A stretch of 64,000 bases of DNA. It comes from Escherichia phage vB_EcoM-101112UKE3-1. The position numbers and the translations under genes are program-made. The stretch is from the sequence record MZ234013.1; one strand, given 5' to 3'. This document shows positions 32,939 to 33,751 of this stretch, in pieces. The notes under the pieces are model-generated. The model was not told the DNA's origin. It worked only from the letters and a program-made list of their open reading frames with translations, and made no database searches. Numbering within the stretch: position 1 is the stretch's first letter; the number at the start of each line of letters is the position of its first letter.

Positions 32939-33751
32939 TTATTCGACCTTCTTAAATTTGCAATTGTCAAAATGGTATCTTTTAGCGTGAGACTTATCCA
33001 TGATTTTAGAACAGTGCGGGCATTTTAATTTTTCTCTGCTATGAGATACACCCGTGATAACTTTGCATTTATCGCCGTGGTATTTTCCATAATTTCCTAC
33101 ATCACATATAATTCCGCAATGCGGGCAATTTCTCTTTTCGACTTTTGCAAGACCCTTAGATAGTTTATTTAAATACTTTTCGTATTTTTGGGGGTCACTT
33201 TTAAGCTCAGACCAAAAATCTTTCATCTGTTTAGAACATCTTTCTTTATATTCTAACATTTCGTTTTCTGATAACGATTCCAAATATTTCACAGAAGCTT
33301 TTCGAATATTTGCATTAACTTCTTTTCTCTTTTCATCTGTCCATAAAGATTTAGTTTTTTTAATGCCTTTTCCGGCTTTTTTAATTCGTTCCTGTTTTAA
33401 ATTTGGTGATAGATTCGCCCAAAACTTTTTAATTGTTTCTGATCTAATTTTAGATGTTTCCTCTTTAATCCATCCGTAATCTTTACTTACAATTCTCTGC
33501 TCTTTTGTACCCTTGGAGAATTTTATTAAGGCATAAGCCATTTCAGAATTTCGGTGTATTTTAAAAAGAAGCTCATGCGCAAAATAGTGTTCTCTTGCTG
33601 TCAGTAAAACCCTGTTTTCTCTAGAGTCATCTCCTCCCATGGATTTTGGGACAATATGGTGTGATTCTGTATAATAATCTAATTTTTTCTTATTAAGACC
33701 TCTTTTAAGAGATCTTTCTATAAGAGAGTTGTAAATTTTAGTATAATTCAT
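32939..33751 (-). CDS. HNH homing endonuclease (mob-like), inserted between genes 13 and 14
   Basis: HNH core [31 protein letters not shown]; C-terminal Cys/His clusters (CPHCGIIC..., CPHCSKIMD...HFDNC); N-terminus [13 protein letters not shown] paralogous to ORF at 51655. Confidence 0.75.

Follow-up and report, generated by a model that had tools for sequence, protein, structure and literature searches.

Evaluating a 64,000-nt stretch of the genome of Escherichia phage vB_EcoM-101112UKE3-1 (MZ234013.1; hereafter "the window"), we found that a 270-aa open reading frame (ORF; 32939..33751, minus strand) is, judged by sequence comparison and with a probability that we place at roughly 85%, a selfish Mob-family HNH homing endonuclease gene lodged at an exact site between neck genes 13 and 14. 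Comparisons among related phages point indirectly to a homing element that has spread between phage genomes rather than within one. The endonuclease is real but already known and ordinary, as phage T6 encodes a 100% identical protein at the same 13/14 position (YP_010067306.1, annotated in RefSeq as "homing endonuclease"), and some 45 further Tequatrovirus records contain equivalents of it; between the T6 and window endonucleases nothing of substance differs. By its sequence the window phage is itself a Tequatrovirus close to T6, its 13-14 region being 96–97.7% identical to T6-like Tequatrovirus genomes, and it differs from T6 by about 5–7% in the flanking genes. Literature searches returned no paper describing the T6 13/14 endonuclease and no cleavage or homing experiment on the protein. 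The points that are newer, and mildly so, are the joining of a Mob domain to I-TevIII-like fingers, a recoded gene 13 tail that carries translation signals, and the behavior of the junction as a hotspot.

The minus-strand gene order in the window is wac (34709-36166), gene 13 (33748..34677; neck/head-tail adaptor, matching T4 gene 13), the 270-aa ORF, gene 14 (32167..32937; neck/head closure, matching T4 gene 14), gene 15 and gene 16, such that the free-standing, Mob-like gene has gene 13 directly upstream and gene 14 directly downstream. At the upstream end, its ATG (33751-33749) and the stop codon of gene 13 share the sequence ATGA; at the downstream end, a single T separates its TAA (32941-32939) from the gene 14 ATG at 32937. 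An earlier note on this DNA had described the ORF as wedged between the two genes with a stop overlap to gene 13, which is what we see on the minus strand, and had put a 2-nt gap before gene 14, which we correct to 1 nt (TAA-T-ATG). T4 genes 13 and 14 are contiguous and possess this same TAA-T-ATG arrangement and 1-nt gap.

Assessing the protein for domain content revealed three parts: an HNH domain (~residues 1-80), a helical linker (~89-202) and two zinc fingers (209-229 and 244-264). The HNH core and C-terminal Cys/His clusters first noticed in the letters were both recovered, the former as a Pfam HNH_4 match above cutoff (24.4 bits; cutoff 22) and the latter as two exact CX2CX12HX3C motifs at the finger residues just given. 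The suggested Mob-like identity likewise stands, with BLASTP matches to T4 MobB (E 6e-33, 35% identity over 217 residues), MobD (E 2e-31, 47% identity over the N-terminal ~110 residues), MobE (E 8e-24, 43% identity over the N-terminal ~110 residues) and MobC (E 2e-14), 45% identity between these ~110 residues and full-length RB9 MobE, and a match to PHROG 655 "homing endonuclease" (E 2.7e-52); by every sequence criterion that could be tested, the gene belongs to the Mob family. Toward the other end, residues 192-267 align by BLASTP with the C-terminal zinc-finger domain of I-TevIII (T4 fragment, E 6e-7; full-length RB9 protein, E 2e-7), in which the CX2CX12-13HX3C motif was shown to bind zinc and to be essential for DNA binding, and next to whose fingers dimerization maps (Robbins et al., PMC1865063). 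A PDB sequence search gave only weak HNH matches (E 0.08–0.15), NCBIfam had no family for the protein, and a search of the linker for NUMOD3 modules gave no Pfam PF07460 match.

In an alignment of 82 homologs, residues E29, H31, H32, P35, N46, H55 and H59 of the HNH part and C244, C247, H260 and C264 of the second finger are invariant, and the window ORF is intact and keeps every family-invariant catalytic and zinc-ligand residue. An AlphaFold (AF2) model built from this alignment (mean pLDDT 92.7) places a beta-beta-alpha element at residues 29-66 (strands 29-32 and 47-50, helix 52-66; pLDDT ≥ 94), followed by five long helices (89-202) and a pair of small fingers, each built of a beta-hairpin and a helix, and its best Foldseek matches are HNH domains, at E values of only 0.2–0.7. 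By sequence and model, the protein joins an HNH nuclease domain of Mob type, through a helical linker, to two zinc fingers of the I-TevIII type.

Set beside known systems, the window protein has in common with T4 MobB, MobD and MobE the N-terminal domain MNYxKIY...HHI(I/V)P...GG.D..N.V.LT..EH..AH (35–47% identity), and its gene, like the T4 Mob genes, is free-standing among conserved genes in the orientation of its neighbors and, like mobA/C/D/E (PMC2988022), lacks its own consensus late promoter. It differs from them in its site, which lies among late structural genes 13/14 whereas the T4 Mob genes lie in nucleotide-metabolism regions, and in its C-terminus, since T4 MobB-E have a different DNA-binding region without the two zinc fingers. 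The only Mob enzyme with shown activity, MobE, nicks nrdB (PMC2790892). For I-TevIII, the HNH endonuclease of the RB3/RB9 nrdB intron, the likeness is confined to its C-terminal ~75 aa with two CX2CX12-13HX3C fingers (33% identity), whereas the N-terminal catalytic domains are not alignable and the I-TevIII gene is intron-encoded rather than free-standing. This pairing of a Mob domain with I-TevIII fingers clearly illustrates how domains are shuffled among phage nucleases.

Surveying related phage records for the insertion, we found it in 46 of 506, with T4, T2 and RB9 among those that lack it, while a synthetic junction from which the insert had been deleted gave one uninterrupted match in 454 of 503 records. 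The insertion between genes 13 and 14 is thereby confirmed, as is the expectation that relatives lacking it have contiguous genes: T4, T2 and about 450 other relatives run from one to the other with the 1-nt gap. These matches show the gene to be, as read from the records, a presence/absence polymorphism at one exact site. We then compared genes 13 through 14 in nine carriers (window, T6, G9062, fPS-2, FL34, pSe_SNUABM_01, YUEEL01, ESh36 and an IMG/VR contig) and ten non-carriers (T4, T2, RB9, Pinarejo, ESh28, CM8, G50 and three IMG/VR genomes). Among the carriers, mean pairwise nucleotide identity is 99.0% for the endonuclease gene, 95.0% for gp13 and 96.5% for gp14; synonymous diversity (pS) is 0.031, 0.22 and 0.17, respectively; and pN/pS is 0.16 in the endonuclease gene versus 0.013–0.019 in the flanking genes. 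In the flanks, carriers are as similar to non-carriers as the members of either class are to one another. By these measures the endonuclease gene is shown to be much younger in carrier genomes than the genes around it, and the pattern is that expected of an element recently moved across diverged backgrounds with very short co-converted tracts. Two irregularities were seen among carriers. Matches to the endonuclease come in two pieces, annotated as two hypothetical proteins, in F1 (MT682712/NC_054912), FN (MZ170041) and SHFML-26 (KX130862/NC_031011), which are likely frameshifted and appear to be decaying copies. Phage G9062 (L071) exceeds the other carriers by 55 nt over the gene 13-to-14 segment, and its gene 14, for which a shortened ORF is annotated, is only 90% identical to that of the window, which suggests an indel inside gene 14.

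By flanking sequence, the nine carriers can be told from the ten non-carriers only within the final 22 nt of gene 13 (33752..33773, minus strand; CCG GTG GGA GTG TTA GTT GGA in the window, ending in the ATGA overlap). Non-carriers end gene 13 with CC(A) TTT GGA ATT TTG GTA GGT TAA, invariant in all ten, and carriers with CC(G/A) GTG GGA GTG TTA GTT GGA TGA, a change that converts the gp13 tail from FGILVG to VGVLVG. Through the recoding, the endonuclease gene gains its ATG (GGT TAA to GGA TGA) and, 10 nt before it, a Shine-Dalgarno-like GGGAG. A small CUCC/GGAG hairpin forms over the Shine-Dalgarno-like sequence in both the MFE and centroid folds, for which a regulatory role is offered as a suggestion only; the RNA fold around the endonuclease start is no more stable than that of shuffled sequence (z = 0.94). 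From the recoded end and the ATGA overlap we infer that translation of the endonuclease would be coupled to that of gene 13. From 41084 to 28992, a range that takes in 7 kb upstream of the gene, the coding strand has no copy of the consensus late promoter TATAAATA, as opposed to sites with one mismatch, and a search for terminator-like sites on the coding strand likewise found none; the gene is probably a promoterless cassette, a description given to several T4 mob and seg genes as well (PMC2988022). At the opposite junction, the 3′ end of the endonuclease gene in carriers (AAGGTCGAATAATATG) resembles the gene 13 end of non-carriers (TGGTAGGTTAATATG), a likeness that could be a remnant of a duplicated target or could reflect a ribosome-binding-site constraint for gene 14. 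Those free-standing endonucleases that have been characterized often cut at a distance of tens to hundreds of bp from where they are inserted. The carrier/non-carrier difference was considered as the mark of a remote cleavage site in gene 13 or 14, and this was set aside, with no diagnostic positions beyond the last 22 nt across ~900 nt on either side.

The homing cycle that we propose would run as follows. Late transcripts of the neck genes would probably include the endonuclease gene, and the ATGA overlap would probably couple its translation to that of gene 13. When a phage lacking the gene infects the same cell, the zinc fingers and linker would bind the intact 13/14 junction, near which the enzyme would either nick, as MobE does, or cut both strands, as dimeric I-TevIII does; a candidate target neighborhood in T4/T2 genes 13-14 is ...CCATTTGGAATTTTGGTAGGTTAATATG.... 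Recombinational repair off the carrier genome would then bring in both the gene and the 22 recoded nt that close gene 13, and the carrier would itself be protected because insertion and recoding disrupt the site. The placement of the target at the 13/14 junction is inferred from sequence polymorphism only. Among T-even phages, homing endonucleases of the free-standing kind shape both marker exclusion and the boundaries of recombination, and for T6 an uncharacterized example at an essential junction of neck genes would make an easy experimental system; the practical value is modest and current understanding of such elements is unchanged.

An alternative source for the gene is suggested by a second Mob-like HNH endonuclease gene in the window (219 aa; 51655..52314, plus strand) that lies between genes 2 and 3, also with an ATGA-overlap design, and that the earlier note took for a paralog and for a sign of active intragenomic spread. 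The paralogy holds, with the 51655 ORF aligning to residues 1-107 of the 13/14 protein (48% identity, E 4e-26), a similarity across 107 aa rather than across the N-terminal 15 residues alone; a search of the window found no family member besides these two. That recent copying within the genome produced both genes might seem favored by this common N-terminal domain and by the same ATGAATTAT start overlapping the upstream stop, but we consider it extremely improbable. Over the first 100 residues the two window proteins are 53% identical, no higher than either is to T4 MobB or MobD (47–57% for each against MobB, MobD and MobE), their C-terminal halves are unrelated, and orthologs of the 13/14 copy hold the same site in distant phages. 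Each copy also has its own distribution: the 2/3 gene was found in 36 of 517 related records, and some genomes possess the 13/14 gene (YUEEL01 and Pu-Krd-SF2 have this copy only), some the 2/3 gene and some both (ESh30). Because of this level of N-domain identity, the unrelated C-termini and the independent distributions, the claim of active spread is not supported, and the two endonucleases are, by sequence, better seen as old family members, each an invader of its own site. The 2/3 gene is fitted into its site by the design seen at 13/14. Its start overlaps the gene 2 stop as ATGA (gene 2 ends at 51658 and gene 3 starts at 52421), its TAA takes the position of the T4 gene 2 TAA with the 106-nt 2/3 spacer of T4 kept downstream, and the gene 2 tail is recoded from T4 TGG TCA AAT ATC TAA to TGG AGC AAT GTA CGA TGA, including a serine switch from TCA to AGC.

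Two further readings would accept the insertion and dispute its present activity or purpose. The gene could be a decaying or inactive remnant, kept since its deletion would harm translation of genes 13 and 14; such decay is documented by T4 itself, which carries a defunct mobA and I-TevIII, and would fit both the ORF split in two in F1, FN and SHFML-26 and a pN/pS of about ten times that of neighboring genes. We find this unlikely for the window copy, as its ORF is intact with all family-invariant catalytic and zinc-ligand residues present, its pN/pS is still well below 1, and its synonymous diversity, very low beside that of the flanks, indicates that it spread recently, for which it would need an active enzyme, either its own or one acting in trans. 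Still less probable, to our reading, is domestication for a phage function, be it as a terminase or packaging aid like the HNH proteins encoded beside terminase genes in cos phages or as a means of weakening competitors or host defenses. The gene does lie two genes upstream of terminase genes 16 and 17, and T6 SegB is reported to aid escape from host defense by amplifying loci (PMC13096335). However, about 90% of close relatives, T4 and T2 included, are fully viable without the gene, so it is not needed for packaging, and an effect on competition would follow from homing rather than replace it.

Looking beyond close relatives, we examined the 13/14 junction in 65 Tevenvirinae loci from IMG/VR and found it tight (−10 to +33 nt) in 59, with this HNH gene in one and unrelated 620–1020-nt inserts encoding Seg-like GIY-YIG proteins in four (L034:3924-4558, L042:3930-4571, L063:3825-4850 and L070:342-962). 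These Seg-like genes occupy the same junction and are free-standing like the HNH gene, although their catalytic family is unrelated to it; the L042 ORF matches Pfam SegE_GIY-YIG above cutoff and the other three match more weakly. Fragments of gp13/gp14 are also duplicated at the L063 locus, perhaps as a scar of assembly or of recombination. Two metagenomic T4-like phages, their gp14 only ~70% identical to that of the window, have a full-length homolog of the window endonuclease (52–57% identical, with both zinc fingers) directly upstream of gp14, and the ATGA overlap recurs in one of the two. The other (L084) has an additional 198-aa HNH ORF between genes 14 and 15 (L084:1621-2217) with one C-terminal CxxC...H...C finger. 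Because the 52–57% orthologs sit at the junction in such distant phages, the endonuclease lineage is, by sequence, tied to it across genera, and because HNH and GIY-YIG inserts both occur there, the junction is a recurrent landing site. A more ambitious account, which we put forward tentatively and hold to be somewhat doubtful as a whole, would make the 13/14 gene a distinct, site-dedicated Mob lineage in which a nickase domain joined to an I-TevIII zinc-finger/dimerization module might make a double-strand break (unlike the nick of MobE), with its ribosome-binding site and start codon lying in the recoded final codons of an essential structural gene and expression obligatorily coupled to gene 13 translation, such that the gene is hard to delete, at a junction long contested by HNH and GIY-YIG genes.

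Two other loci in the window bear on endonuclease genes. Gene 5.1 (47507-47995, minus strand) is 98% identical to its T4 counterpart, and T4 SegC has no match beside it, its sole match in the window being a cross-match to the segB locus, such that the segC site appears, by sequence, to be empty in this phage. That segB locus (~56796-57455, plus strand) encodes a GIY-YIG homing endonuclease homologous to SegB (95.6% identity to the T4 protein over 203 aa), which is the third endonuclease gene in the window.
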